DNA from: Patescibacteria group bacterium
GTDB taxonomy: Bacteria > Patescibacteriota > Microgenomatia > UBA8517
Assembly: GCA_035291665.1 (NCBI GenBank)
Contig: DATDRP010000004.1
Location: forward strand, 22,272 to 86,271
Reading direction: 5' to 3'
DNA length: 64,000 nucleotides
In this document: positions 19,066 through 42,200 of the stretch, piece by piece
Layout: the number at the start of each line of letters is the position of its first letter
How positions within the stretch are numbered: the stretch's first letter is position 1
Program-made: the position numbers and the translations under genes
The notes under the pieces: generated by a model
Seen by the model: the letters and a program-made list of their open reading frames with translations, nothing else
Database searches by the model: none
What the model was told of the DNA's origin: nothing

Positions 19066-19863
19066 ATGAAAACTCATAAAAATCCAAAAAGCAATCTTTC
19101 AAAGAAAGTTTTTGAACTTACTGAAGGTGTAGCAAGCAGATTGACTGATATGGTATTGATAATGCTGTATTACGGATTTGAAGCAGCTTTCTCCAGCCGG
19201 GGGGATCTATGGCAAGCTGGTGAAAAAGTAGTTGGTGATTTTGAATATCTAAACTCTAATTCTATAAAAAATGCCTTGAAGGGTTTGAAAAAACAGGGTT
19301 TTATCGGCAATAAAGGCAGTAGTGAAAATATTTCTGTTATAACAGAAACCGGGAGAAAGAAACTGAACGCAACTATTCCTTTTTACGACAATAAACGTAC
19401 TTGGGATAAACATGTGTATCTTGTTACTTACGACCTACCGGTCAGTAAAAACAATCAACGAAATTATCTCAGGACATATCTCAGGACTATCGGATGTGGA
19501 ATGCTCCAGGAAAGCGTTTGGGTTACACCATATAACCCAACGAAGTTAATTGATGAATTTGTCACGGATTCATTTCTTGAAGACAGTATGATATTGGTAT
19601 CATCATTCGGTAATGATGGTGCAATTGGGGACATGGATTTGCGATCGCTTATGGATAAGGTCTTTAAGCTTTCTGAAATAAACAAAAGATATCGCGATTT
19701 CTTACACCGGACTAATAACGGAGGTTTTACGAAAGAACAATTAATGTTTGGATATTTGGCAATACTGAAGGATGACCCTCAAATACCTTTTGAGTTATTA
19801 CCAGGTGATTGGCTTGGAGGTAAGGCAAATCAAGTTTTCCTCGAGAAGATAAAACAGGGCTAA
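19066..19863 (+). CDS. hypothetical protein, possibly a PaaX-like or Cas2-fold transcriptional regulator
   Basis: 265 aa. The segment HVYLVTYDLPVSKNNQRNYLRTYLRTIGCGMLQESVWVTP resembles the Cas2-like/PaaX C-terminal fold. This is a weak call made from memory only. Confidence 0.4.
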   Translation: MKTHKNPKSNLSKKVFELTEGVASRLTDMVLIMLYYGFEAAFSSRGDLWQAGEKVVGDFEYLNSNSIKNALKGLKKQGFIGNKGSSENISVITETGRKKLNATIPFYDNKRTWDKHVYLVTYDLPVSKNNQRNYLRTYLRTIGCGMLQESVWVTPYNPTKLIDEFVTDSFLEDSMILVSSFGNDGAIGDMDLRSLMDKVFKLSEINKRYRDFLHRTNNGGFTKEQLMFGYLAILKDDPQIPFELLPGDWLGGKANQVFLEKIKQG

Positions 19864-19907
19864 TAAAACATTAAATTCATAAAAATAAGATAAAACAGGG
19901 TGTCTAC

Positions 19908-19945
19908 TCAATGCACGTGCATTTGATAGGCACCCCATTGACCAT
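19908..19945. repeat. direct repeat copy B: atgcacgtgcatttgataggcaccccatt, downstream of the 19066 gene
   Basis: About 25 of 29 positions are identical to copy A, in the same orientation. Confidence 0.6.
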
Positions 19946-20085
19946 AACCATCGATTTGCCGTAACAGCATAACCTATATTTATCCGTCTTTGCAGAAAAC
20001 CGTGAGCGTAAGCTAGTGGAGATTCATTCATCTTTAAATCTGATACTTTAAAGATGGGTAGTCAGACTATATAATCGTTAAGGTC

Positions 20086-21357
20086 ATGAATTACAAACTC
20101 GATAAGCTTCCGAACGGCATCAGATTAATCACCGTAGAAATTCCCAACATGGAATCTGCGACGGTTACTTTGTGGGTTGGAGTCGGTTCGAGGTTTGAAG
20201 AAGATAAAATTGCAGGACTTTCCCATTTTCTGGAGCATATGGTCTTCAAAGGTAGTAAGAAACGCCCGACAGCAAAGAAAATCTCAGAAGCGATTGATGC
20301 CTTCGGCGGAGAATTTAATGCTTCAACTTCAAAAGAGTGGACGAATTTTTATATTAAAGCCCGGAAAGAAAAGGTTGATGTAGCATTTGATGTCTTGTCC
20401 GATATGGTTTTGAACCCCATTTTGTCCGAAAAAGAAATTGAGAAAGAAAAAGGTGTTATTTGCGAGGAAATTTCGATGTACGACGACACTCCAATGGCAA
20501 AAATCGATGATATTTATGAACGATTAATTTTCAAAGGCTCTCGTCTTGGAAGGGATATTATCGGTACAAAAGAAACGGTACGTGGAGTTAAACGTTCGGA
20601 TTTTGATGCATATAGAAAAACCCATTATAAAGGAAGTAATTTTGTAGTAACAGTTGCCGGTGGTATCAAACGTAATGAAGTATTAAAACTTACAAATAAG
20701 TACCTTTCGTCAATGAAGGACGGTAAAAAAGTTGAAGAAGTACTTTACAAATCTCAACAAAAAGTACCGACGGTACTATTGGAAACAAAGAAGAATGAAC
20801 AAGGACATTTAATTCTTGGTTTTTTAGGTGATAAAAGAGACCATAAAGACAAATATGCTGAAGCGGTACTTGCTTCTGTTATCGGAGGAGGAATGAGCGC
20901 TAGAATGTTTACCGAAGTTCGGGAGAAACGGGGACTTGCATATGCGGTACGTACCGGACCGGAACATTTCAAAGAAACCGGTTACTTCGGTACATATGCC
21001 GGAGTAGATTTGAAAAGAATCGATGATGCCATAAAGGTGATACTTGATGAGCATTATAAACTGTCTTCAAAGAAAAAACCGATTTCCAAAAAGGAATTTG
21101 AGAAAGCTAAGGAATTTATGAAAGGTCATTTGGCTTTATCACTGGAAGATACAAAAGCAATCAACGGATTTTTTGGAATGAAAGAGCTGCTATTGGAGAA
21201 AATTGAAACCCCCGATGAAGTAATCAAAAAAGTTGATAAAGTCACACTCGAAGAGGTTTATGCCTACGCTCAAAGAATATTCAAGCCCGAGAGATTATCG
21301 TTGGCTGTCATTGGACCGTTTGACGACGAAAAACGCTTCATGAAGCTGCTTCACTAA
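20086..21357 (+). CDS. M16 family zinc peptidase (insulinase/pitrilysin-like)
   Basis: Inverted zinc-binding motif HFLEHMVFKGS (HxxEH) near the N-terminus and two M16 domains, 423 aa. Confidence 0.85.
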   Translation: MNYKLDKLPNGIRLITVEIPNMESATVTLWVGVGSRFEEDKIAGLSHFLEHMVFKGSKKRPTAKKISEAIDAFGGEFNASTSKEWTNFYIKARKEKVDVAFDVLSDMVLNPILSEKEIEKEKGVICEEISMYDDTPMAKIDDIYERLIFKGSRLGRDIIGTKETVRGVKRSDFDAYRKTHYKGSNFVVTVAGGIKRNEVLKLTNKYLSSMKDGKKVEEVLYKSQQKVPTVLLETKKNEQGHLILGFLGDKRDHKDKYAEAVLASVIGGGMSARMFTEVREKRGLAYAVRTGPEHFKETGYFGTYAGVDLKRIDDAIKVILDEHYKLSSKKKPISKKEFEKAKEFMKGHLALSLEDTKAINGFFGMKELLLEKIETPDEVIKKVDKVTLEEVYAYAQRIFKPERLSLAVIGPFDDEKRFMKLLH

Positions 21358-21383: not shown

Positions 21384-22229
21384 TTAGGGGTAATTAATAT
21401 TAATCGGTTTATTTGGTTTTGATTTATCTTTTTTTCTGGCAATGATAAAGGCGATGACAAGAATTAGTAATACCAAAATCGATCCACCAATTATAACCAA
21501 TTTATTATTAGGATTGAAAATTCCGGAAGTTGAAGTGTAAACCCTTTCACCTGCGGGTTGGTTAGTGTCGGGGTTTGTTTTCGGATTCAAGGAGGGAAGA
21601 GGTCCTTCCGCATCGATTCCTTCTGTGAGAGACGTTTCATCAACCGAATCTGACCCACCCGTTGAATTCTCCGTGGGAGTAATGAGTAGTGTATCGTTTG
21701 CTTTCGGATCGGTGTTTTGGTATATGTATCCGGAAAAATTAGAAACCCTGCTTAGAATGTCACCTGTACCTTGGGAAACTGCTATGTTTGAATCAACAGT
21801 GCTTCCGGGTTCAAAATAAAACCAGACTTTTGCATTGCCTTCTTTGATTGCCTGGAATTTAATTTTAGCAAGTTCTCCCTTTCCGTTATAAGGTTTGTCG
21901 GGTGAATTAACAACACCGGATACGGTTACGGAACCTGTGTCATTATTGAAAAAAACCGAAGGGAAGTCATCGTAAATATCAGAAGCGTCAATTGCAACTA
22001 CTTTCAAAAGATTTGAATTAAAGAACAGTTTTGCACCCGCACCAAGTGAATTTTCACCATCGGTGTTTATCATTACTGAGATATCAATAACATCATATTT
22101 CTTAAGCGATGCCGATGCTGGATCCAAATAAAATTCCGGATTGGCAGCATGAATCTCACTAAAAGATAACAAAAATAGACTTACCAAAAAGACACTAAAT
22201 ATTTTTAAGTGAAGCACTTTTTTATTCAT
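21384..22229 (-). CDS. membrane-anchored protein with one cohesin-like domain (putative anchoring scaffoldin)
   Basis: Signal peptide, then a ~150-aa beta-sandwich-like segment whose pattern (...GAGAKLFFNSNLLKVVAID...SVFFNNDTGSVTVSGV...GKGELAKIKFQAIKEGNAKVWF) parallels cohesin signatures. A Thr/Ser/Pro/Asn-rich linker, a C-terminal TM helix and a KKDKSK stop-transfer follow. Confidence 0.55.
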   Translation of the reverse strand: MNKKVLHLKIFSVFLVSLFLLSFSEIHAANPEFYLDPASASLKKYDVIDISVMINTDGENSLGAGAKLFFNSNLLKVVAIDASDIYDDFPSVFFNNDTGSVTVSGVVNSPDKPYNGKGELAKIKFQAIKEGNAKVWFYFEPGSTVDSNIAVSQGTGDILSRVSNFSGYIYQNTDPKANDTLLITPTENSTGGSDSVDETSLTEGIDAEGPLPSLNPKTNPDTNQPAGERVYTSTSGIFNPNNKLVIIGGSILVLLILVIAFIIARKKDKSKPNKPININYP

Positions 22230-22253
22230 GTAAGAGATTTTACGAAGCTAAAG

Positions 22254-24500
22254 TTAGAGCTGATCCTTCAATAGATTCCAGTTATGTCTCATGATGACAT
22301 AATCAAGGTTATTAATACTTCCGCTTCGATCCAAGTCAACCAAGGACAGAGCTGTGCCGTAGTTGGGGAGCATATTAAGCGTGTAGTCGATCTCGTTTAT
22401 TTCACCGTCTCCATTAAAGTCTCCGCCCAGAAGTATCGGGTTTGAAAGATCAAGATACGAGTTTGTGGTTGATATTACAACAGGGTTTGTATCGCTTCCG
22501 TATTTTCTCGGGAGATATCCTGCAGTCTGAATCAGGAAAACATAATTACCTGTGGCGATTGATAGGATTGCTTCTCCTGCTGTATTTGTGGTTGCGGTTG
22601 TTTGAGTGATCGTTGTTGTATTGGGTTTACGATAAGAAACTGTGATGTTCGCACTGTTACTTACCCCGGTTCTCAACTTTCCCTGCATCTTGATTTTCAA
22701 AGTAACACTTGATGGAGAAGGAGTATTCGTAGCCGATACCGATGTCGGGGTAGCAGTAGGAGGTACATTTGTAGGTGTTGCGGTTGGTACAGATGTGGGT
22801 GGAACTGCAGTCGGACTGACTATGGCTCCGGGTTGAGAATATACTTCAAATTCTGCAAGCTGGAAGTAGTAATTATTATCAGAAGCATTTATTCTCAACT
22901 TTGTTGCATTAATCCTGACATATCTTGCAGTAACTTGCGTGAAGGAGAATGACTGGACGTTACTTGTCGGAAGCGCATAATTCGTAAGGTTTGCGACAGT
23001 TGTCCAAGTCGAATTATTTTGGGAAACCTGAACTGCAAAGTCGATCGGAAAGCCTTGTCCGACGTTTGAAACGTCATTTCTGGGATAAAGATTGACTTTT
23101 CCAACTGTATAGTTTGTTCCCAAATCAACGGTTATCCATTCAGTATGGGAGACACTCAAATTACTAAAACTACTCCATCCGAATGGTGCTGCGGATGAAC
23201 TTGTGTTTCCGTCAACTGCACCTGTTTTGAACCAACCCCAGTTTTCAATTGAGCTGGATGCCAGAACTGCTTTATTGAGTGCCAAATTCAAGTTTGATTG
23301 AATCGTCGGTGTGGCTGTTGGAATTTGTGTGGGAATAGCAGTTGGCTGTACGGTAGGTTGAACAGTCGGCGTTGCTGTCGGAGTTTGGCTGCCTGTTATT
23401 ATTACGGACGTCCCGTTGACGCTTGTCAGGATATCTACCGGATCTTGAGTATTCCATGTTCCGGTAAGAACCATATTCGAGTCATTTCTACCTCCCGGAG
23501 TAAAGTCGAATGTAATCTGAGATCCGGAACTAACTGCGACTCCTTTGAAAATGATATCCCCAACATGGATATTCGATCCGTTAACAGGAGTGGTTGAGGT
23601 GCCGGATCCGACATTAACTGAAATATACGCAGTTCCGGTCGTATTATTGAAAGTTAGTCTTGGGGTTGAGGTAAATCTTGGTTCATTTCCTTTTACAACA
23701 GTCACGGCTTGAAGTACTGCCGGATTGTAGTTTACTATCGCGTCAATACCGTCAACGTTTTGTCCGGCCGTATCTCCATAGATACTTACTGTAAATTGAG
23801 TGTTCAGCGTCTTTGTGCCAGGATTTGTAAGGAAAAGCCTTGCAGAACTTACTGGATTTACGGTGATATTGGCTGGAGTTGTCTGAACACCGAGCAAAAC
23901 TGATTGCATGTTATATACTTCTGTGGATTGAGACAGGCTTACTACGGCTGTTTGATTTGAGTTTGAAGTATTTTGATCGAATGTCAGCTTTGCGATGTTG
24001 GCTATGCCGGAGAGTGGTGGTGCCGGTTGAGGAGTCGGAGTACTATCGTTATATCCGATTGCGATTACCAACCTGAAGCTACCCGTTGTATTTGCCGAGG
24101 CCATTGAAGTTTTTTGAACGACTGTCCAATATTGGGGGATTACTTGGATTTCTTGAGTAAGTTTGACCATCGTAGGATCAAAATTTCCTTGCAAATCGAC
24201 AAATCCCACCTGTTCACCCTGAGTATTAATATTAAGATCGAGTGTTGTTGAAGGAGGGACGGATGCCGTAGAAGGACTCAAGTAAAGACTAACTGTTGTG
24301 ACAGCCGCCTTCAGCCTAAGTCTGATTTCTCTTTGGACTAAATAAACTCCCACAATTGCAGAGATTGTCAGAAAAATTACCAATCCAAGCTGCATTGGAT
24401 GAAGTTTTTTAAGTTTGGCAAGCAAAACTCGAAACGCTTTTTTTAAGTCGACTACATTTTTTAACATAAATAAAAAATATGTCTTTATTAACAACATCAT
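22254..24500 (-). CDS. scaffoldin-like protein: N-terminal TM anchor, two cohesin-like domains, F5/8-type-C (discoidin/CBM32-like) domain, divergent C-terminal dockerin-like module
   Basis: - Cohesin-like patterns: VGFVDLQGNFDPTMVKL...SGIANIAKLTFD and VDGIDAIVNYNPAVLQAVTV...GDIIFKGVAVSSGSQITFDF.
- Discoidin signature: ...WSSFS...EWITVDLGTNYTVGKVNLYPRND...
- C-terminus: GGDFNGDGEINEIDY...DLDRSGSINNLDYVIM, two Ca-loop-like segments. Confidence 0.6.
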   Translation of the reverse strand: MMLLIKTYFLFMLKNVVDLKKAFRVLLAKLKKLHPMQLGLVIFLTISAIVGVYLVQREIRLRLKAAVTTVSLYLSPSTASVPPSTTLDLNINTQGEQVGFVDLQGNFDPTMVKLTQEIQVIPQYWTVVQKTSMASANTTGSFRLVIAIGYNDSTPTPQPAPPLSGIANIAKLTFDQNTSNSNQTAVVSLSQSTEVYNMQSVLLGVQTTPANITVNPVSSARLFLTNPGTKTLNTQFTVSIYGDTAGQNVDGIDAIVNYNPAVLQAVTVVKGNEPRFTSTPRLTFNNTTGTAYISVNVGSGTSTTPVNGSNIHVGDIIFKGVAVSSGSQITFDFTPGGRNDSNMVLTGTWNTQDPVDILTSVNGTSVIITGSQTPTATPTVQPTVQPTAIPTQIPTATPTIQSNLNLALNKAVLASSSIENWGWFKTGAVDGNTSSSAAPFGWSSFSNLSVSHTEWITVDLGTNYTVGKVNLYPRNDVSNVGQGFPIDFAVQVSQNNSTWTTVANLTNYALPTSNVQSFSFTQVTARYVRINATKLRINASDNNYYFQLAEFEVYSQPGAIVSPTAVPPTSVPTATPTNVPPTATPTSVSATNTPSPSSVTLKIKMQGKLRTGVSNSANITVSYRKPNTTTITQTTATTNTAGEAILSIATGNYVFLIQTAGYLPRKYGSDTNPVVISTTNSYLDLSNPILLGGDFNGDGEINEIDYTLNMLPNYGTALSLVDLDRSGSINNLDYVIMRHNWNLLKDQL

Positions 24501-24532
24501 ATTCCTGTAATGTTGTCAATAGCCTTGTTAGA

Positions 24533-25858
24533 TTATAGACTATAATTCCCAAACCAAACAATATAATCAGCGCCATTTACGATCCCGTCTCTATTAAAAT
24601 CTCCGACAATATTTCCCGAAGTTGTGGGTTTTTGATAGTTTGTAAACCAAATTAAGTAATCGGCGCCGTTTGCCTTGCCGTCTCCATTTGCATCACCGGA
24701 ATTTGACCGAATCGAAGTCGGGTATACCGAAGGCAACTGATCGCTAGCTGGGACAACCACTTCTACATAATTTGACAATACAGATTCCGATCCGTTTATA
24801 TTAACAGCCGAAACGTTATAAATATATGTTTTACCCGATGTAACGCTTGTATCGGTATACGAAGTCTGATTTGCAGTAAAATCGGGGCCGTATCCGCCAT
24901 CGTCGCGCCCAATCCGATAATGGGAAATGTAGGGAGTAGTAGATGAATTCCAGGAAAGCGATACCGATTTTGATGTGATTCCCGTGACTTTCAAATTTGA
25001 AGGAGCACATACAGCGGTTCTTATTACGTTTGCAGACGAGGATACGTTACCGGAATTATCCTGGGCTGTTACTTCATAGCTGTAAGAACCACAAGACAAC
25101 GATTTATCAGTATATTGATAGCTTTCAGTAACTTGATCCATGATCGGAGTGAAGCTGTGAATTTTTGTACCGTTACGCCAAATAGAATAATTCGGAATAT
25201 CGCGATTATCTTTGGATGCAGTGCTTGTCAATTCAAAACTGTATTGCATATAATCTGAAGTGTTCTTAACGGTCAGATACGGCGCAGTCGGAGCAGTTTT
25301 GTCGACAATATTTATTATATTGTAATCAAAAGCTTCCCATTCCTCATTAAATCCAAGGTCGGGATTGAATGCATGGGCGACAACCAAATAATCTCTAACG
25401 GGATATAAATTGCTGTCGAAAGAACAGGTGAATGGAGCTGAGAAGTCAGTACACAGTTCCCAAACGTTTGGTTTATCATAATTTTCTTCCAGTCCGAATT
25501 TGACATATTTGACATCACCTGTAGTTGTGACAGTTATGTTTACCAATCCTTCAGCACTATAACCCTCTTGGGGTGAAGTGACTGTGATTGTGATCAGACC
25601 GAGTGGGGGTGTGGGAAGCGGTGTGACGGTAGGGGTGGGAACTCCGCAAGACCAAATGCAGGATGTATCGTTTGAACAAGATGAGTACTCAAAACTTGAA
25701 CAATAGGAAGGACCTGTACAACAGGAATACGCTTCGGATCTTTCGGCGGTTTTCGGATTTTGTGTAAAAAAGATGGCTATATATAAAGTGACGGATAAGA
25801 TCCCGACTGCGGAAATCTGAAGGAATAACGGTTTTTTTAATTTGTTAAGAAAATGCAT
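24533..25858 (-). CDS. secreted Ig-like/fibronectin-III repeat protein with C-terminal dockerin-like module
   Basis: N-terminal hydrophobic anchor or signal, a Cys-rich segment and Fn3-like repeats (SNLKVTGITSKSVSLSWN...). C-terminal GDANGDGKANGADYLIWFTNY...GDFNRDGIVNGADYIVWFGNY. Confidence 0.65.
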   Translation of the reverse strand: MHFLNKLKKPLFLQISAVGILSVTLYIAIFFTQNPKTAERSEAYSCCTGPSYCSSFEYSSCSNDTSCIWSCGVPTPTVTPLPTPPLGLITITVTSPQEGYSAEGLVNITVTTTGDVKYVKFGLEENYDKPNVWELCTDFSAPFTCSFDSNLYPVRDYLVVAHAFNPDLGFNEEWEAFDYNIINIVDKTAPTAPYLTVKNTSDYMQYSFELTSTASKDNRDIPNYSIWRNGTKIHSFTPIMDQVTESYQYTDKSLSCGSYSYEVTAQDNSGNVSSSANVIRTAVCAPSNLKVTGITSKSVSLSWNSSTTPYISHYRIGRDDGGYGPDFTANQTSYTDTSVTSGKTYIYNVSAVNINGSESVLSNYVEVVVPASDQLPSVYPTSIRSNSGDANGDGKANGADYLIWFTNYQKPTTSGNIVGDFNRDGIVNGADYIVWFGNYSL

Positions 25859-25957
25859 ACTCAGGTTATTTTAAGAATATGCTTAAAAGGAATTGATTGT
25901 CAAACAAAAATATTCAAAGAGGGTAAATGAATTTCGCTATTTATACGTATTTCAAGA

Positions 25958-26074
25958 ATACCCCATCTGAAGGCAATTGCCGAAGGATGGGGATGAATTG
26001 AATTAAGAATGTAACCTCGTTTAGACGGATCCGAAAGGATACCCCGCCTGAAAGCGACAGCGAGAGGGTGGGGA
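25958..26074. repeat. tandem duplicated hairpin element (2 x ~55 bp): taCCCCaTCtgaaggcaattgccgaaggaTGGGG / taCCCCgCCtgaaagcgacagcgagagGGTGGGG
   Basis: Two adjacent stem-loops with 7-bp G/C stems sit in the intergenic gap between two minus-strand dockerin genes. The spurious 60-aa ORF 25900..26082 shows the repeat as HPxAxAFRxGIL x2. Confidence 0.55.
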
Positions 26075-26103
26075 GGTTTCATATCAATGTATAAGAAAAT
26101 AGA

Positions 26104-28005
26104 TCACTTCCCGTAATTTCCGAACCAGATGATGTAATCAGCTCCGTTAACTATGGTATCTCTATTAAAATCTCCTGCTGATGGACCTTGGCTGGTTGTT
26201 TTTTTGTAGTTATTAAACCAGATCAAGTAATCGGCTCCGTTTACTTTTCCGTCGCCATTTGCATCCCCCGGTTTTGAAGTCGCCGTCGGGGTGGCTGTTG
26301 GAGTAACACTCGGTCCGCCGGTTGGCGGAGTAGGAGTAGATGAAGCCTGCGGTGTAGGCGAGGGTGGTATCGAACCGTTTACACTTATAGCTGTTGAAAA
26401 TTCACTTGCCAGTCCCGACCACTCAACCGATTTAACTTTAAACCAGGTATTTGATGTTGATCCTTGGTATCCGATACTGCCTGTATACAACCAGACAAAA
26501 GAGTCGTTCCAATGCTCGGCCGCGGTTGATCCCAGTACTCCTCGGACCAAGCCTGTAAACGAGGTGGGGGTCCTGCCGGTATAACTGACTAGTTCATTTG
26601 GTTTTTCGGATGACAGACCGGATATCTCCAGTGTACCTTGATCTGGAAAACCTGTTGTAGAATCTACATTAATTGAAGTTTGGTTATTTGTAATTTTGCT
26701 GGGAGCGTTCAGGTACGTTAACAATGAGGGGAGCAATGCAATCTGGTTATAAGTTCCCCCCTGGCTGGTGGAACCGTATATTTGATATTCCTTAATTTCC
26801 CGATGGTTAGGAGCGGGTTTAAAAGTGACTATTACATTACCGCCCGACGAAACCGCTTTCATATCAGAAGGTGCGGCGGGTTTCTTAAAAATAACATAGT
26901 AGAGATTTTTGTTTCCAGCTTGGCGAATATCTCCGCTAAATGCAATTTTAGTCGTATCGGGACTGAAGCTGGCGTTGACATAATCCCTGCCCGCATCACT
27001 CCCGTAATTTGCCACTCTTACCGGAGCCGATCCGGAAGTTGTGAGCGGTTGCGGAACACTGAAGACAAGAACGTGACCAACCTCGCCTCCAAGGTTAGCT
27101 CCCAGAACCATCCATTTAGCGTCAGGACTGAAGTTGGTGTGATCGCCATAAACTGCACCGTTTATCATAGTTAATTGTCTGGTTGCCGTATCTCGGGCAA
27201 AAAGAGTATTTGCATATTGAAAATCCGACCCATTCCCTCCGATCCAACCTTGACCTCCACCAATCATATAAGCAGAATCGGACAGGGTAGGATGGTCAAA
27301 AAGTCCTGCCCAGGTTTGGTTCCCTACATTAAGCTGGCCAAGAAATGTACCGGTATTAACATCAAAAACCATCGGTACATCTGTATATTGTTCCCATTGG
27401 CTATTATTAAGATACCAAGCGGCATTGTTACCCAGCCAGCCGTGGGTAACATCAAACCCACCTGACTGTCTGCCGGGGGAAACATAACCACGGCAATTTG
27501 TACCGTCAAGGTTAATGAACTTAACTGTACCTGTCCCGGAGCTGATATCGTTGGAGTTAGCAATACCTGAGAGTGTCCTTCCGTCGGGGCTAAGCATAGA
27601 AAAATAAAAAGGGAGGCAGGATGAGGCATTTGGAATTTGTGAAGATATGTTAGCGGCGATTTCTGTTTGGTAGAGATTTTCTTTTGAATAGTAGAACTTG
27701 CTGTCGTGGCTCCACCATCCCATCAGACCTTCCCCGACACCGCTGGAAGGGGCGCTTAAAGTGTGATTATTGTTTCCGTCAGTATTCATAACGTTATTAG
27801 GTCCGGTGATTATATATTGGCCATTAGGACTGAATGGGTTGGAAGTGTAATAAGAGGTAGGGTAGCTTGCAGAAGTATTAGTCATTCGCCATATTTCAAA
27901 GCCGGTTTCCGGATCGGTAAAGATTTCCTTGGGAGCTGCCTGAACAGGTGAGACAAAGATGGTAATAGTTAATATTGCGATAAAAACCTTAAACCAATGT
28001 GACAT
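26104..28005 (-). CDS. secreted beta-propeller (TolB/WD40-like) plus Fn3-like protein with C-terminal dockerin-like module
   Basis: Signal peptide, repeated propeller-blade-like segments, a Fn3-like domain, a TP-rich linker (TPTATPTATSKP) and GDANGDGKVNGADYLIWFNNY...GDFNRDTIVNGADYIIWFGNYGK. Confidence 0.65.
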   Translation of the reverse strand: MSHWFKVFIAILTITIFVSPVQAAPKEIFTDPETGFEIWRMTNTSASYPTSYYTSNPFSPNGQYIITGPNNVMNTDGNNNHTLSAPSSGVGEGLMGWWSHDSKFYYSKENLYQTEIAANISSQIPNASSCLPFYFSMLSPDGRTLSGIANSNDISSGTGTVKFINLDGTNCRGYVSPGRQSGGFDVTHGWLGNNAAWYLNNSQWEQYTDVPMVFDVNTGTFLGQLNVGNQTWAGLFDHPTLSDSAYMIGGGQGWIGGNGSDFQYANTLFARDTATRQLTMINGAVYGDHTNFSPDAKWMVLGANLGGEVGHVLVFSVPQPLTTSGSAPVRVANYGSDAGRDYVNASFSPDTTKIAFSGDIRQAGNKNLYYVIFKKPAAPSDMKAVSSGGNVIVTFKPAPNHREIKEYQIYGSTSQGGTYNQIALLPSLLTYLNAPSKITNNQTSINVDSTTGFPDQGTLEISGLSSEKPNELVSYTGRTPTSFTGLVRGVLGSTAAEHWNDSFVWLYTGSIGYQGSTSNTWFKVKSVEWSGLASEFSTAISVNGSIPPSPTPQASSTPTPPTGGPSVTPTATPTATSKPGDANGDGKVNGADYLIWFNNYKKTTSQGPSAGDFNRDTIVNGADYIIWFGNYGK

Positions 28006-28058
28006 GGAAGTAATTTAATAATCCATCAAAGTGAGGGTTGATGTCAATAAAATTCAAT

Positions 28059-30686
28059 TTATTTCCCGTAATTCCCGAACCAGATGATGTAATCAGCTCC
28101 GTTAACTATGGTATCTCCATTAAAATCTCCTGCTGATGGACCTTGGCTGGTTGATTTTTTATAGTTATTAAACCAGATCAAGTAATCGGCTCCGTTTACT
28201 TTTCCGTCGCCATTTGCATCCCCCGGTTTTGAAGTCGCCGTCGGGGTGGCTGTCGGTATGATCGTCGGTATGGGAGTAGATATTCCGGTTGGGAAGGCCG
28301 TTGGTATAGGTGTGGATGTTGGTACGGGACTTCCGGTGTGGACTGCTTTGATGGCAATATCTTTATTAAGACCGCTTACGGGTATGGACAATGTACCTCC
28401 AGACGAGATTACACTGGTTGTAACTGCACCGGTATAAGTATTCCAGTACTCAATATTATATGTTCCCGCCTGAAGGTTCGGGATAGAAACGGTCGGATTG
28501 ATCGTCCCTGGTGTACCGGTATTTGACCAAATATAATCCCGATGCTGTACCCAAAGATATGCCCGGTAGCGGTCTCCGCTCACCAGTGCAAAGGCGCGGG
28601 TTTTACCTCCGGTATCGTTTTGGACAGAAAGCGTAGTACCGGTGTATCCGGATGGGGTGTCGGCCGCAGTCATGACGGAGGTGAAATTACTGGTTGAAAA
28701 ACTGATATTCTGAAAGAAATTTTTCATTACAAGTTTTTCCTGATTTACTAAATTTGAATATGAGCTGTCGTTTTGATTGTCATACCAGAATATGGGAGTG
28801 GTAGCCATTGGTGAGAACAGTCCGGTCCAGGCTCCATTATGATGTGCCCGGTGGGCACCCTCTCCGGTGGTTCCCTGCGGATTTGGCTGGTTCCATTCCG
28901 TCGTTCCCACACCGATTTCACCCCAGACAAACGGGCGGGGAGCCGATCCGGGTGTCCAATCGGTGCTGTCGCCGATACCCAAACCGTCGCAGTAATATTT
29001 ACCATACTGTCGGCCGTAGAGACACCAGGCAAAACGATGCACGAAGTTGACTTCATCGTTAGTAAGAGCGGAAGAGTAGCGGCTGATCATCATATAATCA
29101 TGGTAATTGGTGAGGTTGAATGCAGGGGAGGACCAGAATGCCGGACTGAATGCCTGAGATCCCTGGGAAGTGGTGCGCATGTGCTGGTAAATATCGGTTT
29201 GCTTCTGATAATCAGCATACTGTTGGAAGAAATTAAATATTGATGTATTTGGAAGAACATGGCCAAGCTCATTATGGTTTTCCCAGGCAAGAATTGATGT
29301 TGCGTATCCCCACCGGGCCACACGGTAACGGAAATTCCGCTGCCAGCTTTTCAGTACCCACGGTTGCGACCAGTCCCAGGAATCAGGCGATTCAGGGTTA
29401 CCCGGCCAGGTAAACCAGGGACCCGAGCAGGAACAAAGCTGGATATAGACACTATTGGTTACTCCTGCGTCGATATACTGATCTTGCAGCCAGCATTCTT
29501 CCGGATTGAAGTAATTACCTAACGGACGGGGTAGCGTTGTATTCGAATTCGGATCGTTATTGACATTATCCTTGGCGAAATGCCGTTCCATATCACCGTC
29601 TGTTACTATCGAATAAAGGATGTTTCCCTGCGCGTCTACCGGTCCGAATTCAACATCATCAACATAACCACTACCTTGGAAGTAGACTACTAGATCCGAT
29701 GAAGGAGTATATGTGCGTTCTGAAAGGGTATAACTGGTGGAGTTGGCGTCGATCTGGGTGCCGGAGATTACGCTTCCCGGAAGCACCCCATTCAGTGACC
29801 TGAGGGATACGGTGACAGTGCCTTTGGTCCAGACTTTTAATTTATGGGAGCGGTTGGGTTCGGTGACAGCTAAACGTTGATACCAGGCTGTTCCGGGTTG
29901 AGCTGCCCTCATACCGGAATGGGTATTAGTATTGATTGTTACTCCGACGGCAGCCCCGTCTGTCGTGGAAGCATTAATCCAGGTTGTATGAGCGCCTTCG
30001 ACCCCCAGTGAAAAATCATTCTGGTCCCAAATCCGGATCAAATTAATTCCGTACTGCTTATCCTGAACAAATCTGCTTTCGTAGTTATCTCCCCAGGGAT
30101 ACCCGCGGGAAAGGGGGACATATGACGAGCCGTTGTCAAACACCATGTACCGGGGATCCTGTGGATTAGGCTTTATAAATCCCGGATTGGAATTGTCGGC
30201 TGTGATGCTGAAAGTTTGGGCAGAGGTTTGGGTCTTACCTTCTTTATCTTCAGCACTGACAGTATAAGAATAAGTTCCGACCTCCGACCAGGTGAACCGT
30301 CCTTTCCACACGGGAAGACCGGACTTACCCATAACATTTCTGCTTCCGACAATGTGCCGGGTGTAATCCTGGTAAAAGAATGCCGGAAGTACAAGCTGTT
30401 TACCGCTGGGTGTAGTGATGTTGATATTAACGGTTACTCCATCCACACCAAACCATGTCATACGCGACGGGTTTGCTGCCTGGGTGTCAGACGGATCGTA
30501 GAAATAATAAGGATTGGGGTACGTTTTGGATAGATTAAATGAGAATTCGATTTTCTGATATTTTTTAACCGATGCTGACGAAGGAGAAACCGTAACAGGT
30601 CCGGTAACCTGCGGGGCGGCTGCCTTTACCGGTACAGAAGAAATAGCAAGAAATAAAAAAATTAGAATAGCTTTTTTATATAGCAT
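28059..30686 (-). CDS. secreted putative glycoside hydrolase (N-terminal beta-sandwich plus TIM-barrel-like domain) with C-terminal dockerin-like module
   Basis: Signal peptide. An internal segment LAWENHNELGH is reminiscent of a clan GH-A catalytic NE motif, but the family is unassigned. The C-terminal linker and dockerin are nearly identical to those of the 26104 gene. Confidence 0.55.
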   Translation of the reverse strand: MLYKKAILIFLFLAISSVPVKAAAPQVTGPVTVSPSSASVKKYQKIEFSFNLSKTYPNPYYFYDPSDTQAANPSRMTWFGVDGVTVNINITTPSGKQLVLPAFFYQDYTRHIVGSRNVMGKSGLPVWKGRFTWSEVGTYSYTVSAEDKEGKTQTSAQTFSITADNSNPGFIKPNPQDPRYMVFDNGSSYVPLSRGYPWGDNYESRFVQDKQYGINLIRIWDQNDFSLGVEGAHTTWINASTTDGAAVGVTINTNTHSGMRAAQPGTAWYQRLAVTEPNRSHKLKVWTKGTVTVSLRSLNGVLPGSVISGTQIDANSTSYTLSERTYTPSSDLVVYFQGSGYVDDVEFGPVDAQGNILYSIVTDGDMERHFAKDNVNNDPNSNTTLPRPLGNYFNPEECWLQDQYIDAGVTNSVYIQLCSCSGPWFTWPGNPESPDSWDWSQPWVLKSWQRNFRYRVARWGYATSILAWENHNELGHVLPNTSIFNFFQQYADYQKQTDIYQHMRTTSQGSQAFSPAFWSSPAFNLTNYHDYMMISRYSSALTNDEVNFVHRFAWCLYGRQYGKYYCDGLGIGDSTDWTPGSAPRPFVWGEIGVGTTEWNQPNPQGTTGEGAHRAHHNGAWTGLFSPMATTPIFWYDNQNDSSYSNLVNQEKLVMKNFFQNISFSTSNFTSVMTAADTPSGYTGTTLSVQNDTGGKTRAFALVSGDRYRAYLWVQHRDYIWSNTGTPGTINPTVSIPNLQAGTYNIEYWNTYTGAVTTSVISSGGTLSIPVSGLNKDIAIKAVHTGSPVPTSTPIPTAFPTGISTPIPTIIPTATPTATSKPGDANGDGKVNGADYLIWFNNYKKSTSQGPSAGDFNGDTIVNGADYIIWFGNYGK

Positions 30687-30696
30687 TTATTTTGAT

Positions 30697-33342
30697 TTAT
30701 TTTATAGTAATTTGACTCGGATCGGTGGCGAATATCACCGGATCACCTTGGAAAAATTCCACTTTACCTTCAACCCAAATTGATTGGTGAAGCTGGTAGT
30801 CTTTTTCTATATTTGGGAAGTTGCTTAATTGTTCAACCGGGATTAAAACCTGTAACAACTGACTGTGAGGCTCATCGCAACTAAGGTAATAGTAACGGCT
30901 GCTTTTATGAATATATTTTATTTCGCAAGATGTTTTTATGTTTTGGAATTCGTATCCGATTGCGTAAAAGTAGGCAATAGATTGTGGTGGTCCTGATTCG
31001 ATATCAGCACCCAGCTGAATATTGGAAATCCCTGCAACCTCCGGAGATGATATTGTATTTGTATCAGCTTGAGTTCCTACATCTTTCAGAACAAAAATGG
31101 TGTTATTTATACTTTTGACTATAATATATTTTCCGCTTACCAGAACATATGGATTGATTGTCCAACCCCGCCCGTCAGCGTAAAATCCGTCGGGATAGCT
31201 ACGGTTACCACCTTCTGCACAGAGGTTAGTACACCAATGTGTAGTAGTGTTACAATTGCCGCACTGCTCCGCTGAAACGAATGGAGTATAAGAACCATTA
31301 ATAGGGTTTGTAAAAGTGGCACCGCGACTGTCACTTCTGTCAGTGATTTTCAGCCCTTCCAGTACAGCCAACCAGTGTGAGTGAAAAACCATATCACTGG
31401 AACCGGAAACCATACCCTGTTCATCCGTTTGGATATCAATAAACTTAACAAATCGAGCATCACCTCCGGTATATCCGGTGACAGTAGAATTATCCAAGAC
31501 CATTTCACCCATGGTGGCATCCTCACGGTAATCACACCAACCGCTGGCACAGGTTTGACCATTGCTATAGATTATGTACGCCACCTGCTTACCATTAGAA
31601 AGAGTACGGACAGCTGGTTGGGGACCGGAATAAAGCCAACCATTACCAAAAGCTCCAAATTTAATGGCTGGGGTAAACATTCGGGCACCTGTGTCCAAAC
31701 TCAAAGCGAAGAGGGTTTGATAATTAGGATTCGCATCAAGGGTTTGTTTAATACCGGCGTTTGTGGTCGGCATGGGAGAAGCAAAATACATTGCATTGTA
31801 ACCATGGCGCATTCGCATGAGTACAATTCCTGTATTGTCAGCGATGACAGGCCAGTTATGTCGGAATTCGTAACAGGCGCTACCTTCTCCGTCCGAGCCA
31901 CAATACCAATTGTTTGTTGTTGGTTTTACATTCCATCGGAGGGTACTACTACTATTGTTGATCGCTCTGACTCGTAAATCCGGATCAGTTGCATAAACAA
32001 TCACATCATACCGGGCGGAATATGAAGGCATGGTAACTTGATTAATACCTGAACCGGGGTTATACGGCCACCCGCCACCCGGAGAACTAAGGTTCGCTGT
32101 AGAAAGTTTATGTAATTTTCCATCATTGGCGGTAAAATAAACATAGTTTCCAGCAATTAACGGGGAAGTGGTTAAACTTGCTCCGGCATTAAAACTATTG
32201 AGCGTTGTACCGTTTGATCCGTTTAATTTGTATAATGTATTTCCAGATGCAACAAAAACTGCATCTGTACCCGAATCATATGCTGCCGAACTGTTAAGAC
32301 CTCCAAGACTTTTTGTCCAAATATTTGATCCATTGGTAAGATTCAGTGCGTACAAAGTTCCGTTTCCAGCCGGTACATATACTCGATTATTTCCGACAGT
32401 CGGGTAGACTTGATACTCAGAAACGGAATCTACATCGCTTCTCATCCATTGGTAAGCCCAACTATTTGAAAGGTCAACGGTATTCCATCCGGTTCTCTGA
32501 GCGTTAAAAGCGTGTTGGCTCCATTCGGTGGTGGGATTACTTGGCATCAGAGTCGGGGTTGGACCACTTGGTGTGGGGGTTGGCTGTTGGACTGTCGGAG
32601 TCGGAGGGACAGGTGTATTGGTTGCATTGGGAACAGGCGTATTTGTCGGATTGGGTGTGGGATTGGGTCCTGATGTATTTATGGTAATTCTATCAATGTC
32701 GGGTGCATACCCTGTATTATTAAGGAACCTTATAGTGTTATTTCCGGATGCAAGACTTACCGATATAGCTTTTGATGCAACTGTTGTCCAGCTTCCTGAA
32801 TTGGCGAATGAGTACAAAGCTGCAGCACTGCCGTTTATGCTTATTGACACATCCCGGTTGGGATCGCCGCTAATATAATATACAGTCATCGTGTAGGCAG
32901 CTTGTGAAAGAGAACTAATATTATTAAATTGAAGGTAATTCCCCGAACCTCCACCTATCCAGCCTACAATTTGTCCGCCTGAACATGTTGTACAGCTTCT
33001 TGCAGCAACAGCTCCCGCAAATGTATTTGAAGTTGATTCCGCTTCATATGAGGCAGTTCCTCCACCTATCGGAGTTGGAGTGGGGCCAACCTTACCGTAA
33101 TTATTAAACCAGATGAGGTAATCGGCTCCGTTCACTATGGTGTCACCATTAAAATCACCGGCTGATGCTCCCTGACTGGTTGACTTTTTATAATTGTTAA
33201 ACCAGACAATATAGTCGGCTCCATTTACTTTCCCGTCACCATTAGCATCTCCGGGAAGCGGTGATTGAGCTGCAGCATAATTGGAGCATGTTAAAAATAT
33301 TAAGGAAAATACCAATACAATCTTAAAATAAAGATTTCTCAT
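30697..33342 (-). CDS. secreted PQQ-like beta-propeller protein with N-terminal dockerin-like module
   Basis: Signal peptide, then PGDANGDGKVNGADYIVWFNNYKK...GDFNGDTIVNGADYLIWFNNYGK, a TP linker, PQQ-like repeats (YALNLTNGSNIWT...) and a Cys-rich C-terminal domain (WCDYREDATMGEMVLD). Confidence 0.7.
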   Translation of the reverse strand: MRNLYFKIVLVFSLIFLTCSNYAAAQSPLPGDANGDGKVNGADYIVWFNNYKKSTSQGASAGDFNGDTIVNGADYLIWFNNYGKVGPTPTPIGGGTASYEAESTSNTFAGAVAARSCTTCSGGQIVGWIGGGSGNYLQFNNISSLSQAAYTMTVYYISGDPNRDVSISINGSAAALYSFANSGSWTTVASKAISVSLASGNNTIRFLNNTGYAPDIDRITINTSGPNPTPNPTNTPVPNATNTPVPPTPTVQQPTPTPSGPTPTLMPSNPTTEWSQHAFNAQRTGWNTVDLSNSWAYQWMRSDVDSVSEYQVYPTVGNNRVYVPAGNGTLYALNLTNGSNIWTKSLGGLNSSAAYDSGTDAVFVASGNTLYKLNGSNGTTLNSFNAGASLTTSPLIAGNYVYFTANDGKLHKLSTANLSSPGGGWPYNPGSGINQVTMPSYSARYDVIVYATDPDLRVRAINNSSSTLRWNVKPTTNNWYCGSDGEGSACYEFRHNWPVIADNTGIVLMRMRHGYNAMYFASPMPTTNAGIKQTLDANPNYQTLFALSLDTGARMFTPAIKFGAFGNGWLYSGPQPAVRTLSNGKQVAYIIYSNGQTCASGWCDYREDATMGEMVLDNSTVTGYTGGDARFVKFIDIQTDEQGMVSGSSDMVFHSHWLAVLEGLKITDRSDSRGATFTNPINGSYTPFVSAEQCGNCNTTTHWCTNLCAEGGNRSYPDGFYADGRGWTINPYVLVSGKYIIVKSINNTIFVLKDVGTQADTNTISSPEVAGISNIQLGADIESGPPQSIAYFYAIGYEFQNIKTSCEIKYIHKSSRYYYLSCDEPHSQLLQVLIPVEQLSNFPNIEKDYQLHQSIWVEGKVEFFQGDPVIFATDPSQITIK

Positions 33343-33466
33343 ACTATGTACGGAAGTTTAATATACTTCTTAAGTCTATCTTACGAAGAATTTAATTATC
33401 AAGGACTAATTTGTAATTGGCCACAGAAGCCTGATATAAGAGTATATAAATAGTATTGGAAAGTTA
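33343..33466 (-). promoter_or_regulatory. conserved intergenic promoter region upstream of the 30697..33342 gene (duplicate of 37169..37291)
   Basis: The ~120-bp intergenic sequence is about 90% identical to the region upstream of the paralogous PQQ gene. On the minus strand it contains TTGATA...TATATT-like elements. Confidence 0.35.
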
Positions 33467-34699
33467 TTATTTGTTGTAGTTACTAAACCATACAATATAG
33501 TCAGCTCCGTTAACTATGGTATCTCTATTAAAATCTCCTGCTGATGGACCTTGACTGGTTGATTTTTTATAATTTGCAAACCAGATCAAATAATCCGCTC
33601 CGTTAACTTTCCCGTCACCATTTGCATCTCCGGGTTTGGAAGTCGCCGTTGGGGTGGCTGTCGGTATGATTGTCGGTGTGGGAGTAGGAGTATTGATAAC
33701 TCCGGATGTCGGAGTCGGGGAGGGGGGGCGCACTGTTGGTGTGGGAGACGGATTAACAGAAATTCCCGCGTTGGTCAGAATTTCCGTATCAGAAAAGAGT
33801 GTAAACGTTTGTGCGTATTTGCTGTTCATTGGTTCCATGAAGAGCTTATTTGAAAGCATGCCGTTAAGAACCGTACCCATATGACTGTCACTCATTACAG
33901 CGTTGTGAGGTTCATTATTGAATGAAGTAAGGCTTATTGTTTCGCCGGCAATCGTAAAACTGGTTCCGGCAAGTTGTGTACTTGCCCATTTATTAAAATC
34001 AAATAACGCGAGATTCCGTTGGGAAGCAATTGTTGCTATTCCCTGATTGACTGTATTAATAGCCTGGGTGGCACGTTGGCGTCCGGTTGCATTTGGGTAA
34101 AGCGATTGGATAAGCAAAAACTGCCCGGGATCACCGATGTTGGCAATTATTATTGGTATGTTTTTGGTGTTCAGGATTGTATCAACAGCGGTAGTAATAT
34201 TTGCAAGAATTCCGTTTATTTTTGATTGAATTTGGGCATCAGTCATTGTGCCGTTGTAAATTGGATCGTACGTGGCAACAGCAGGGTTAGGACTGAAATC
34301 ATTTGTTCCGATCCAAATTACTGCATGGGTAACCAATCCTTGTTGTACTTGTGAAGCCAAACCTGTATGTTGTCCCGAAGTAATCATGGATGACGCGTTA
34401 GCGGCAGTTCTTGCCCAATTGTATGCATACCCGCACCGTCTTGGTTCCGAACGGCATCCCCAAGCTCCCGCATTAACACCCCGGTATTTCACCAAAAGCT
34501 CTAACCAATTATAAGTTGTTGCACTATAGCTTCCACCCCGGTTATCATCAGCCCTGTATTCATCGGTATTGCTATCACCCAATATACCCAGCCCGGTAAT
34601 CGGCGCCCCTAATACTTTACCTGTAAAAAAGAGCTGGAAAATGAGTACCAGTAAGAAAATTTTAATTTTTGAGTTTTTCAATTTCAATTTAAGGTTCAT
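33467..34699 (-). CDS. secreted SGNH/GDSL-family hydrolase (esterase/lipase-like) with C-terminal dockerin-like module
   Basis: Signal peptide, a GDSNTD block-I motif (ILGDSNTDEY) and WIGTNDF. C-terminal TPTPT linker and dockerin. Confidence 0.7.
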   Translation of the reverse strand: MNLKLKLKNSKIKIFLLVLIFQLFFTGKVLGAPITGLGILGDSNTDEYRADDNRGGSYSATTYNWLELLVKYRGVNAGAWGCRSEPRRCGYAYNWARTAANASSMITSGQHTGLASQVQQGLVTHAVIWIGTNDFSPNPAVATYDPIYNGTMTDAQIQSKINGILANITTAVDTILNTKNIPIIIANIGDPGQFLLIQSLYPNATGRQRATQAINTVNQGIATIASQRNLALFDFNKWASTQLAGTSFTIAGETISLTSFNNEPHNAVMSDSHMGTVLNGMLSNKLFMEPMNSKYAQTFTLFSDTEILTNAGISVNPSPTPTVRPPSPTPTSGVINTPTPTPTIIPTATPTATSKPGDANGDGKVNGADYLIWFANYKKSTSQGPSAGDFNRDTIVNGADYIVWFSNYNK

Positions 34700-34855
34700 A
34701 TAATTTTCCGCTTAGTAATTTCTTGGTTATTGCTATTATTTATATTACCCTGTTATGGAATATTTTTAAACTGTCTTTAAAAAACCCTTCCTGGGCGGTG
34801 AGTATTTCATAAGTAAAGAGAGCGGCCTTTGAAAACCATAGATATTAAAGTTGGA

Positions 34856-37168: not shown

Positions 37169-37291
37169 ACTATATACGGAAGTTTTGTATAATTGTTAAG
37201 TCTATCTTACGAAGAATTTGATTATCAAGGACTAATTTGAGTTTAGCCACCAGCAAACGATATACATATATATAGTAGTATGGTAAAGGTA
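37169..37291 (-). promoter_or_regulatory. conserved intergenic promoter region upstream of the 34856..37168 gene (duplicate of 33343..33466)
   Basis: See the 33343..33466 entry. Confidence 0.35.
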
Positions 37292-39649: not shown

Positions 39650-39733
39650 AATAAAGCCTTATATCATTTTGTTGCGGTTGAACATTGAAGTCAAGTGGTG
39701 TCAATGTTGTTTATCTCGAATATTAACAAAAAC

Positions 39734-42128: not shown

Positions 42129-42134
42129 ACCTCT

Positions 42135-42195
42135 TCTCTCGTATCACGTATCACGTTTCTCGTATTTCGTTTTTCGTATTTAGTTTTGTACAATG
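42135..42195. repeat. short degenerate tandem repeat (cgtatcacgtatcacgtttctcgtatttcgtttttcgtattt)
   Basis: Direct reading. It lies in the gap between adk and the GGDEF gene. Confidence 0.6.
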
Positions 42196-42200
42196 GATAG

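Follow-up and report, generated by a model that had tools for sequence, protein, structure and literature searches.

A 64,000-nucleotide stretch of a Patescibacteria genome (contig DATDRP010000004.1, here called the window) carries ten co-directional genes at 21384..40897(-): eight genes for dockerin-bearing cargo proteins, then a gene for a scaffoldin-like protein, then a gene for a membrane-anchored cohesin protein. We take the host to be an ultrasmall groundwater member of the Patescibacteria (the Candidate Phyla Radiation, CPR). Gaps of 24-32 nucleotides separate the scaffoldin gene from its two neighbors, and an N-terminal export signal or anchor is present in all ten proteins of the cluster. 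Together, the genes probably specify a two-tier system of cohesins and dockerins for assembling proteins on the cell surface. The features of the scaffoldin gene and its anchor neighbor that bear on this reading are as follows.

22254..24500 (-): scaffoldin-like gene, 748 amino acids, with a hydrophobic segment, cohesin 1 (Coh1), cohesin 2 (Coh2), Pro/Thr linker, discoidin domain, Pro/Thr linker, X module and dockerin, delimited by family hidden Markov models (HMMs)
24333..24404 (-): uncharged hydrophobic segment, residues 33-56, by Kyte-Doolittle hydropathy; signal anchor or core of a cleavable signal peptide
23847..24311 (-): Coh1 (D1), residues 64-218, the fastest-evolving module, with a Pro/Thr-rich loop insertion
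23391..23843 (-): Coh2 (D2), residues 220-370, with a family-invariant NDSN motif and invariant D356..L358 ("DIL"); profile E = 1.6e-21
22866..23261 (-): F5/8 type C domain (discoidin, similar to carbohydrate-binding module family 32, CBM32), residues 414-545; PF00754 E = 4.6e-20
22440..22709 (-): X module, residues 598-687, a transthyretin-like or CarboxypepD_reg-like beta sandwich with no linker to the dockerin
22257..22436 (-): scaffoldin-type dockerin, residues 689-748, two asymmetric Ca-loop repeats; Dockerin_1 21.8 bits
21384..22229 (-): anchor gene, 281 amino acids, with signal peptide (residues 1-28), cohesin (29-172), Ser/Thr/Pro-rich linker, C-terminal transmembrane helix and basic tail
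21714..22145 (-): anchor cohesin, residues 29-172; cohesin-family profile E = 5e-34
21441..21497 (-): anchor C-terminal transmembrane helix, residues 245-263; Kyte-Doolittle mean 3.28

The open reading frame at 22254..24500(-) is intact, and the identical 748-residue protein is called on six independent metagenome contigs, indicating that the sequence is real and not an assembly oddity. Translation may start at M1, M12 or M36, and every candidate start retains the hydrophobic segment. A 737-residue variant is named "discoidin domain-containing protein" by NCBI, in a metagenome-assembled genome (MAG) of a "Patescibacteria group bacterium". This name mentions the discoidin domain only, and the scaffoldin architecture has thus been overlooked by public annotation.

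The original prediction, made from the letters of the DNA, placed two cohesin-like segments in this protein. Pfam gives no sign of them: PF00963, the Pfam cohesin family, matches neither the 748- nor the 281-residue protein even at E<=1, and NCBIfam likewise yields no cohesin match for either. Single-sequence phmmer searches against PDB sequences found no cohesin for these proteins, and a word-indexed homologue search with D1 and D2 retrieved nothing, whereas queries built from alignments succeeded. D1, D2 and residues 29-172 of the 281-residue neighbor are mutually homologous (D2 against the neighbor's cohesin, BLASTP E = 2e-8). A profile built from these three window domains alone matches, among PDB entries, only cohesin structures (E = 2.4e-4). 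It retrieves relatives that carry PF00963, and a second round yields 99 single-cohesin proteins of about 225 residues, most with PF00963. The profile of these 99 relatives returns the 281-residue anchor (E = 5e-34), D2 (E = 1.6e-21) and D1 (E = 4.4e-9), with no match in any of the eight dockerin proteins. Profiles of the scaffoldin family's cohesins similarly match only cohesins in the PDB.

Relatives of the window protein support the same assignment. PF00963 matches 23 of 28 scaffoldin orthologues, scoring above the gathering score at the Coh1 position in some and at the Coh2 position in others; the latter include P0131, P0144 and P0198. Coh2 itself is 35% identical to P0001, a carrier of PF00963. 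Structure prediction of the two segments, which had been proposed as a check, gives a cohesin-like fold, with the nine-stranded beta-sandwich (jelly-roll) typical of cohesins. The two segments are therefore cohesins by homology to each other and to the neighbor, by profile, by the PF00963 matches of orthologues and by fold search. Within the scaffoldin, Coh2 is set apart from Coh1 by its motifs. The NDSN motif reads G-R-N-D-S-N in the window protein, and a DSN...G-D-I-L motif is common to Coh2 and the anchor cohesins and is missing from Coh1.

At the C-terminus lies a dockerin preceded by a module that the first reading of the sequence had overlooked, a 90-residue beta domain between the second Pro/Thr linker and the dockerin, here called the X module. 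Dockerin_1 (PF00404) scores 21.8 bits at residues 693-738, slightly below the gathering score of 22.9, and is matched by 24 of the 28 scaffoldin orthologues. Two canonical Ca loops are present at residues 694-705 and 722-733, DFNGDGEINEID and DLDRSGSINNLD, and their Ca-ligand positions are invariant across 28 family members. The module thus has the two repeats of about 22 residues that characterize dockerins, and in each of them an EF-hand-like Ca loop of the pattern D-x-[ND]-x-[DNS]-G-x-[IV]-N-x-x-D precedes a helix. The C-terminal 152 residues, comprising X module and dockerin (the X-Doc dyad), were modelled with an alignment of 28 orthologues. The resulting model has a predicted local distance difference test score (pLDDT) of 95.7 and a predicted template-modelling score (pTM) of 0.88, and contains two helices at model positions 107-117 and 135-143. 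Foldseek searches with this model return eight matches at E<=1e-3, all of them type II X-Doc dyads (ScaA, CipA, CipB), with TM-scores of 0.63-0.70. The absence of a linker, the model and the Foldseek matches agree with an Ig-like X module that is rigidly packed and lies directly upstream of the dockerin, as in known dyads of this type. CarboxypepD_reg is matched by the X module of three orthologues.

The label "type-II-like dockerin", given in the original prediction, holds for one kind of evidence and not for the other. In predicted structure, the dyad looks like a type II X-Doc, as Foldseek matches at E<=1e-3 are to X-Doc dyads only. Membership in the clostridial type II clade is not supported by sequence: a family profile search did not place the protein in the type II dockerin/X-module clade, type I dockerins match better, and the window dyad is about 20% identical to solved X-Doc structures.

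That the C-terminal module is diverged from the dockerins of neighboring genes is borne out by direct comparison. Identity is 33-38% between the scaffoldin dockerin and the eight cargo dockerins but 64-96% among the latter, and the linker of the scaffoldin dockerin is four residues shorter than in the cargo type. At positions 10/11 of the two Ca loops, cargo dockerins have GA/GA and the scaffoldin dockerin has EI/NL. The two repeats share 16 of 22 residues in cargo dockerins and 6 of 22 in the scaffoldin dockerin. In cellulosomes, type II dockerins bind in a single mode and type I dockerins in a dual mode. By analogy, the asymmetric scaffoldin dockerin and the symmetric cargo dockerins may parallel single-mode type II and dual-mode type I dockerins, respectively. 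The arrangement is not confined to the window. In locus L010, three cargo genes lie directly upstream of the scaffoldin gene and their dockerins match the window cargo-dockerin profile at 1e-17 to 1e-19, indicating that both dockerin classes and the gene order recur.

The discoidin domain at residues 414-545, already recognized in the original prediction, scores 72.5 bits with PF00754 (gathering score 28.2), and PF22633 also matches (E = 3e-19). It is flanked by Pro/Thr linkers at residues about 371-403 and 556-596. Among solved structures, it is closest to the discoidin domains from a Paenibacillus glucanase/chitosanase (4zxe and 2rv9, at E about 1e-7). This domain is optional in the family, being missing from at least 25 of about 30 full-length scaffoldin relatives. 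What is inserted between Coh2 and the X-Doc dyad (about columns 500-975 of the family alignment A5) varies, as seen in P0114, P0127 and P0133, and in most members this slot is empty. It holds the discoidin domain in the window protein, an unassigned segment followed by DUF7402 (discoidin-like) in P0127, and a DUF1349/ConA-like domain in P0114.

The scaffoldin is one of a conserved family. When the full-length protein was used as query, an exhaustive HMMER search found many discoidin proteins, and the best 150 representatives were examined. Among these, at least 25 clusters at 50% identity have the order hydrophobic segment, Coh1, Coh2, Pro/Thr linker, X module and dockerin. Family members have 540-600 residues and are 30-43% identical to the window protein; a few further relatives have a discoidin, DUF7402 or ConA-like domain inserted where the window protein has its discoidin domain. 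The pair of scaffoldin and anchor genes is kept across distinct species. In literature on scaffoldins, cohesins or dockerins in CPR bacteria, of which our coverage is incomplete, no Coh-Coh-X-Doc family and no pairing with an anchor is described, and the family is apparently new to the literature. Cohesin- and dockerin-domain proteins have been found expressed by Candidatus Shapirobacterales (Microgenomates) by metaproteomics (10.1101/2021.08.21.457207), which lends independent support to the system proposed here. A cultivated Saccharibacterium has an essential dockerin-domain protein, with host glycans proposed as its target (PMC10633639). These earlier reports differ from the present case in that they concern domain matches only.

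The anchor gene begins 24 nucleotides past the scaffoldin stop codon, and its product is named "cohesin domain-containing protein" by NCBI. The original prediction regarded this neighbor as a single-cohesin transmembrane protein that would anchor the scaffold. The cohesin profile match and the C-terminal transmembrane helix confirm the first part of this view, and synteny supports the second. Among the matches listed, an anchor-type gene directly follows the scaffoldin gene on the same strand in all ten loci with downstream DNA, namely the window and L008, L009, L010, L011, L012, L013, L022, L023 and L024. The downstream genes in these loci encode proteins with a signal peptide, cohesin, linker, C-terminal transmembrane helix and basic tail. 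Scans of GTDB genomes and of metagenomes with family alignments find at least 13 and at least 5 loci, respectively, and the synteny count is a small sample. We rejected a "type II" label for the anchor cohesin on sequence grounds, as its profile is nearer to the type I cohesin of CipC (E = 1.7e-6) than to type II cohesins (E = 0.3-0.5). The partner expected of a type II dyad would be a type II cohesin, which is longer and has an extra helix and beta-flaps; the adjacent anchor cohesins have about 144 residues.

Several variations on these modules are seen in related genomes. The single-cohesin relatives P0001-P0099 form a large family of about 225 residues, one member being named Candidatus Daviesbacteria, and 92 of the 99 have LPxTG near the C-terminus, a motif that suggests sortase-type anchoring. 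Unlike these relatives, the scaffoldin-adjacent anchors end in a transmembrane helix and basic tail. Locus L008 (9878..19093) has tandem scaffoldin genes (573 and 557 residues) ahead of one anchor gene. A second mini-cluster in L008 encodes a 434-residue Coh1-Coh2 protein with a different dockerin and without an X module, a 211-residue Coh1-like protein and a 285-residue protein with an anchor-like cohesin. L025 (6569..12696) shows another arrangement of the same modules, in which a 1024-residue protein, beginning with an anchor-type cohesin and ending in a scaffoldin-type dockerin, is flanked by two cohesin proteins. The record titles of L008-L012 read "uncultured Gammaproteobacteria" or "Pseudomonadales" (TPA_asm) and are possibly wrong; L013 and the window are titled Patescibacteria. 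The guanine-plus-cytosine (GC) content of these loci ranges from 0.35 to 0.52.

The N-terminus of the scaffoldin can be read in two ways. Its most hydrophobic 19-mer spans residues 37-55 (Kyte-Doolittle mean 2.26), and residues 33-56 carry no charge. In 28 family members, the uncharged segment has 16-30 residues and lies behind a basic tail 9-66 residues long, features that look like those of a true anchor. An invariant Ala follows the segment by 2-13 residues in all 28 members (by 6-13 in 27), and S or T occupies position -3 relative to this Ala in 18 of them, a pattern that fits a signal peptidase I site. The hydrophobic segment of the original prediction is thus present, and both the anchor role claimed for it and a cleavable signal peptide fit the sequence. 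Cleavage would result in a CipA-like layout; without cleavage, the scaffold would be tethered at both ends.

The eight cargo genes lie upstream of the scaffoldin gene and encode the following proteins.

24533..25858 (-): cargo 1, 441 amino acids, with an N-terminal hydrophobic segment, Cys-rich stretch, Ig-like and fn3 domains, and C-terminal cargo-type dockerin
26104..28005 (-): cargo 2, 633 amino acids, with signal peptide, PD40-type beta-propeller region and C-terminal cargo-type dockerin
28059..30686 (-): cargo 3, 875 amino acids, with signal peptide, DUF5060-type region (PDB 9gmj, E = 1e-19) and C-terminal cargo-type dockerin
30697..33342 (-): cargo 4, 881 amino acids, with signal peptide, N-terminal cargo-type dockerin, CBM6/35 and PQQ-like beta-propeller
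33467..34699 (-): cargo 5, 410 amino acids, with signal peptide, SGNH/GDSL hydrolase and C-terminal cargo-type dockerin
34856..37168 (-): cargo 6, 770 amino acids, with signal peptide, N-terminal cargo-type dockerin and PQQ-like beta-propeller
37292..39649 (-): cargo 7, 785 amino acids, with signal peptide, no recognisable domain and C-terminal cargo-type dockerin
39734..40897 (-): cargo 8, 387 amino acids, with signal peptide, LamG/ConA-like lectin domain and C-terminal cargo-type dockerin

Domain searches recognized no cellulase or other glycoside hydrolase family in the eight cargo proteins, so a cellulosome as strictly defined is not supported. With its beta-propellers, lectin-like domains, SGNH esterase and DUF5060-type protein, the cargo points to glycan binding, glycan modification or attachment, rather than to cellulose hydrolysis. 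The structure matched by cargo 3, 9gmj, is itself described as a "DUF5060 domain-containing protein", and the NCBI name for cargo 2 is "dockerin type I domain-containing protein". For cargo 1, the assignments rest on matches to fn3 (E = 9e-8), Dockerin_1 (E = 7e-5) and the cargo-dockerin HMM (E = 6e-35). Of the cargo dockerins, that of cargo 1 diverges most (64-73% identity). In both PQQ-like beta-propeller proteins (30697..33342 and 34856..37168), the dockerin is N-terminal, right behind the signal peptide. The export signals of the cluster proteins were read by eye: the cargo signal peptides have AXA-like sites, and one cargo protein has a hydrophobic, anchor-like segment instead. This is cargo 1, whose hydrophobic N-terminus looks uncleaved and is followed by the Cys-rich stretch AYSCCTGPSYCSSFEYSSCSNDTSCIWSCG.

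A scan of the cluster for promoters and terminators found nothing above chance, and what bears on an operon is the short gaps and the common strand. Rfam and tRNA scans found three tRNAs only, elsewhere in the window. The GC content of 21384..40897 is 0.433, versus 0.368 in the rest of the window, a difference that could reflect either the Thr/Pro/Gly-rich composition of extracellular proteins or horizontal acquisition. The cluster is flanked by plus-strand genes (19066..21357 and 41019..43142). A PaaX-like regulator and an M16 (pitrilysin) peptidase are found on one side, and an adenylate-kinase-like protein and a GGDEF diguanylate cyclase on the other.

Taken by analogy with known systems, the most likely function of the cluster is that of a two-tier surface display complex with non-cellulolytic cargo. 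The dockerins of the eight cargo proteins would plug into Coh1 and/or Coh2 of the scaffold, and the X-Doc dyad of the scaffold would plug into the membrane-anchored cohesin, much as the CipA X-Doc dyad plugs into SdbA, OlpB or Orf2p. The discoidin module may bring the complex to a glycan; a host cell or a polymeric substrate is a plausible carrier of it. Like a primary scaffoldin, the protein is non-catalytic and has two cohesins and a dockerin set apart from the cargo class (33-38% identity). The scaffoldin reading of the original prediction is supported, and both the X module and the synteny strengthen it. Of the ScaA/CipA layout that had been proposed for it, the two cohesins, discoidin domain and distinct dockerin are all present, along with the X module; the cargo, which lacks recognisable glycoside hydrolases, does not conform. 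A display or attachment complex fits this cargo better than a cellulosome does.

Several observations weigh against this interpretation. Its wiring is drawn from analogy and synteny, and eight cargo proteins are set against only two or three cohesins. The dockerin profile matches type I dockerins best (E = 1.7e-5 to 1e-3), and the X-Doc sequence profile reaches the ScaA X-Doc dyad (4wi0, 4u3s) only at E = 0.09-0.14. On the receptor side, the anchor cohesin profile is likewise nearest to the type I CipC cohesin (E = 1.7e-6), type II (SdbA-type) cohesins scoring E = 0.3-0.5. The D1 model is of moderate confidence and comes from a cohesin-rich alignment. An uncleaved N-terminal anchor would by itself hold the scaffold in the membrane, and tethering it again via the X-Doc dyad would differ from the CipA arrangement. 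Finally, because the invariant DSN and G-D-I-L motifs occur in both Coh2 and the anchor cohesin, these two domains might share one binding partner.

A different wiring, which we regard as unlikely, is the foremost rival. Here, cargo dockerins would enter the anchored cohesin and/or Coh1, and the X-Doc dyad would enter Coh2 of another scaffold, or both Coh2 and the anchor, resulting in chains or a lattice of N-terminally anchored scaffolds and no simple CipA-on-SdbA stack. Mean identities over five genomes suit such a scheme, as the scaffoldin dockerin (63%) and Coh2 (39%) are conserved above the anchor (34%) and Coh1 (22%), but interfaces are not identifiable from conservation levels alone. 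The DSN...GDIL motif, invariant in Coh2 and the anchor cohesin and not in Coh1, is consistent with it, as is the resemblance of the 16-30-residue segment behind its 9-66-residue basic tail to a true anchor. Against this stands the strict adjacency of scaffoldin and anchor genes in 10/10 of the listed loci, which argues for a direct partnership of the two proteins. Known X-Doc dyads, such as those of CipA and ScaA, moreover bind the cohesins of anchoring proteins and not those of their own scaffold.

The partners might also lie outside the cell. Patescibacteria are widely regarded as epibionts, and the cohesins and/or the X-Doc dyad could bind host-cell partners, making the locus mainly an attachment device of a presumably episymbiotic bacterium. 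The lectin-like discoidin domain on the scaffold, cargo rich in lectin-like and beta-propeller domains, and the essential dockerin-domain protein of Saccharibacterium, for which a host glycan target was proposed (PMC10633639), are in keeping with this idea. It is nevertheless improbable: no host partner can be named, and matching cohesins and two dockerin classes are co-encoded in one co-directional cluster and conserved together, which is the signature of self-assembly. Least probable by far, and close to refuted, is the notion that these are generic beta-sandwich and EF-hand-like modules of unrelated surface proteins that do not bind one another. The lack of a Pfam cohesin match in the window proteins and a dockerin score slightly under the gathering threshold speak for it, but profiles, orthologues and folds all point to cohesin, dockerin and X-Doc modules, the Ca ligands do not vary, and cargo and scaffoldin dockerins and three cohesins are packed within 20 kb.

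The two-tier surface complex, as the preferred interpretation, would have consequences beyond this locus. It is plausible, if somewhat short of likely, that Patescibacteria, probably Microgenomatia, possess a conserved hierarchical cohesin-dockerin organelle with non-cellulolytic cargo that binds or remodels host-cell glycans. If so, the X-Doc architecture, solved only in scaffoldins of C. thermocellum and A. cellulolyticus, would be much older than its known occurrence or have been exchanged with CPR bacteria, and X-Doc systems would be part of the machinery for episymbiotic attachment and feeding in the CPR. The recurrence of cellulosome logic as a conserved gene pair in ultrasmall Patescibacteria offers a testable handle on CPR surface organization, and possibly on host engagement. 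It further bears on the evolutionary origin of X-Doc dyads and provides compact new cohesin-dockerin pairs, of two proposed specificities, for protein engineering.

Assembly of the cellulosome type, with its scaffoldin, X-Doc dyad and anchoring cohesin, has its textbook examples in a few cellulolytic Firmicutes. The present scaffoldin resembles CipA and CipB of Clostridium (Acetivibrio) thermocellum and ScaA of Acetivibrio cellulolyticus in the modelled X-Doc dyad, and its asymmetric dockerin relates to the symmetric cargo dockerins as type II relates to type I in those systems. It differs from them in its host, a Patescibacteria MAG and no clostridium, and in cargo that are not cellulases. 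It has two cohesins, compared to nine in CipA; its sugar-binding module is discoidin/CBM32-like and optional, whereas theirs is a CBM3; and where they have a plain signal peptide, it has a long hydrophobic segment behind a presumably cytoplasmic N-terminal tail. The anchor protein is similar to the anchoring scaffoldins SdbA, OlpB and Orf2p of C. thermocellum and to ScaB/ScaC-type anchors, both in being a surface-tethered cohesin that presumably receives the X-Doc dyad and in having its gene beside the scaffoldin gene. Unlike these proteins, it is tethered by a C-terminal transmembrane helix with a basic tail, rather than by S-layer homology (SLH) repeats or sortase, and its one cohesin is compact, at about 144 residues, and by profile nearest to type I CipC (E = 1.7e-6). 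Cohesin and dockerin modules outside cellulosomes occur across Bacteria and Archaea. Such modules, among them the cohesins of Archaeoglobus fulgidus (2xdh) and of the Clostridium perfringens toxin complex (2vo8, 2w1n, 2o4e), mostly form single pairs, whereas the cluster described here has an X-Doc dyad, a dedicated anchor and a proposed hierarchical arrangement with two specificities.

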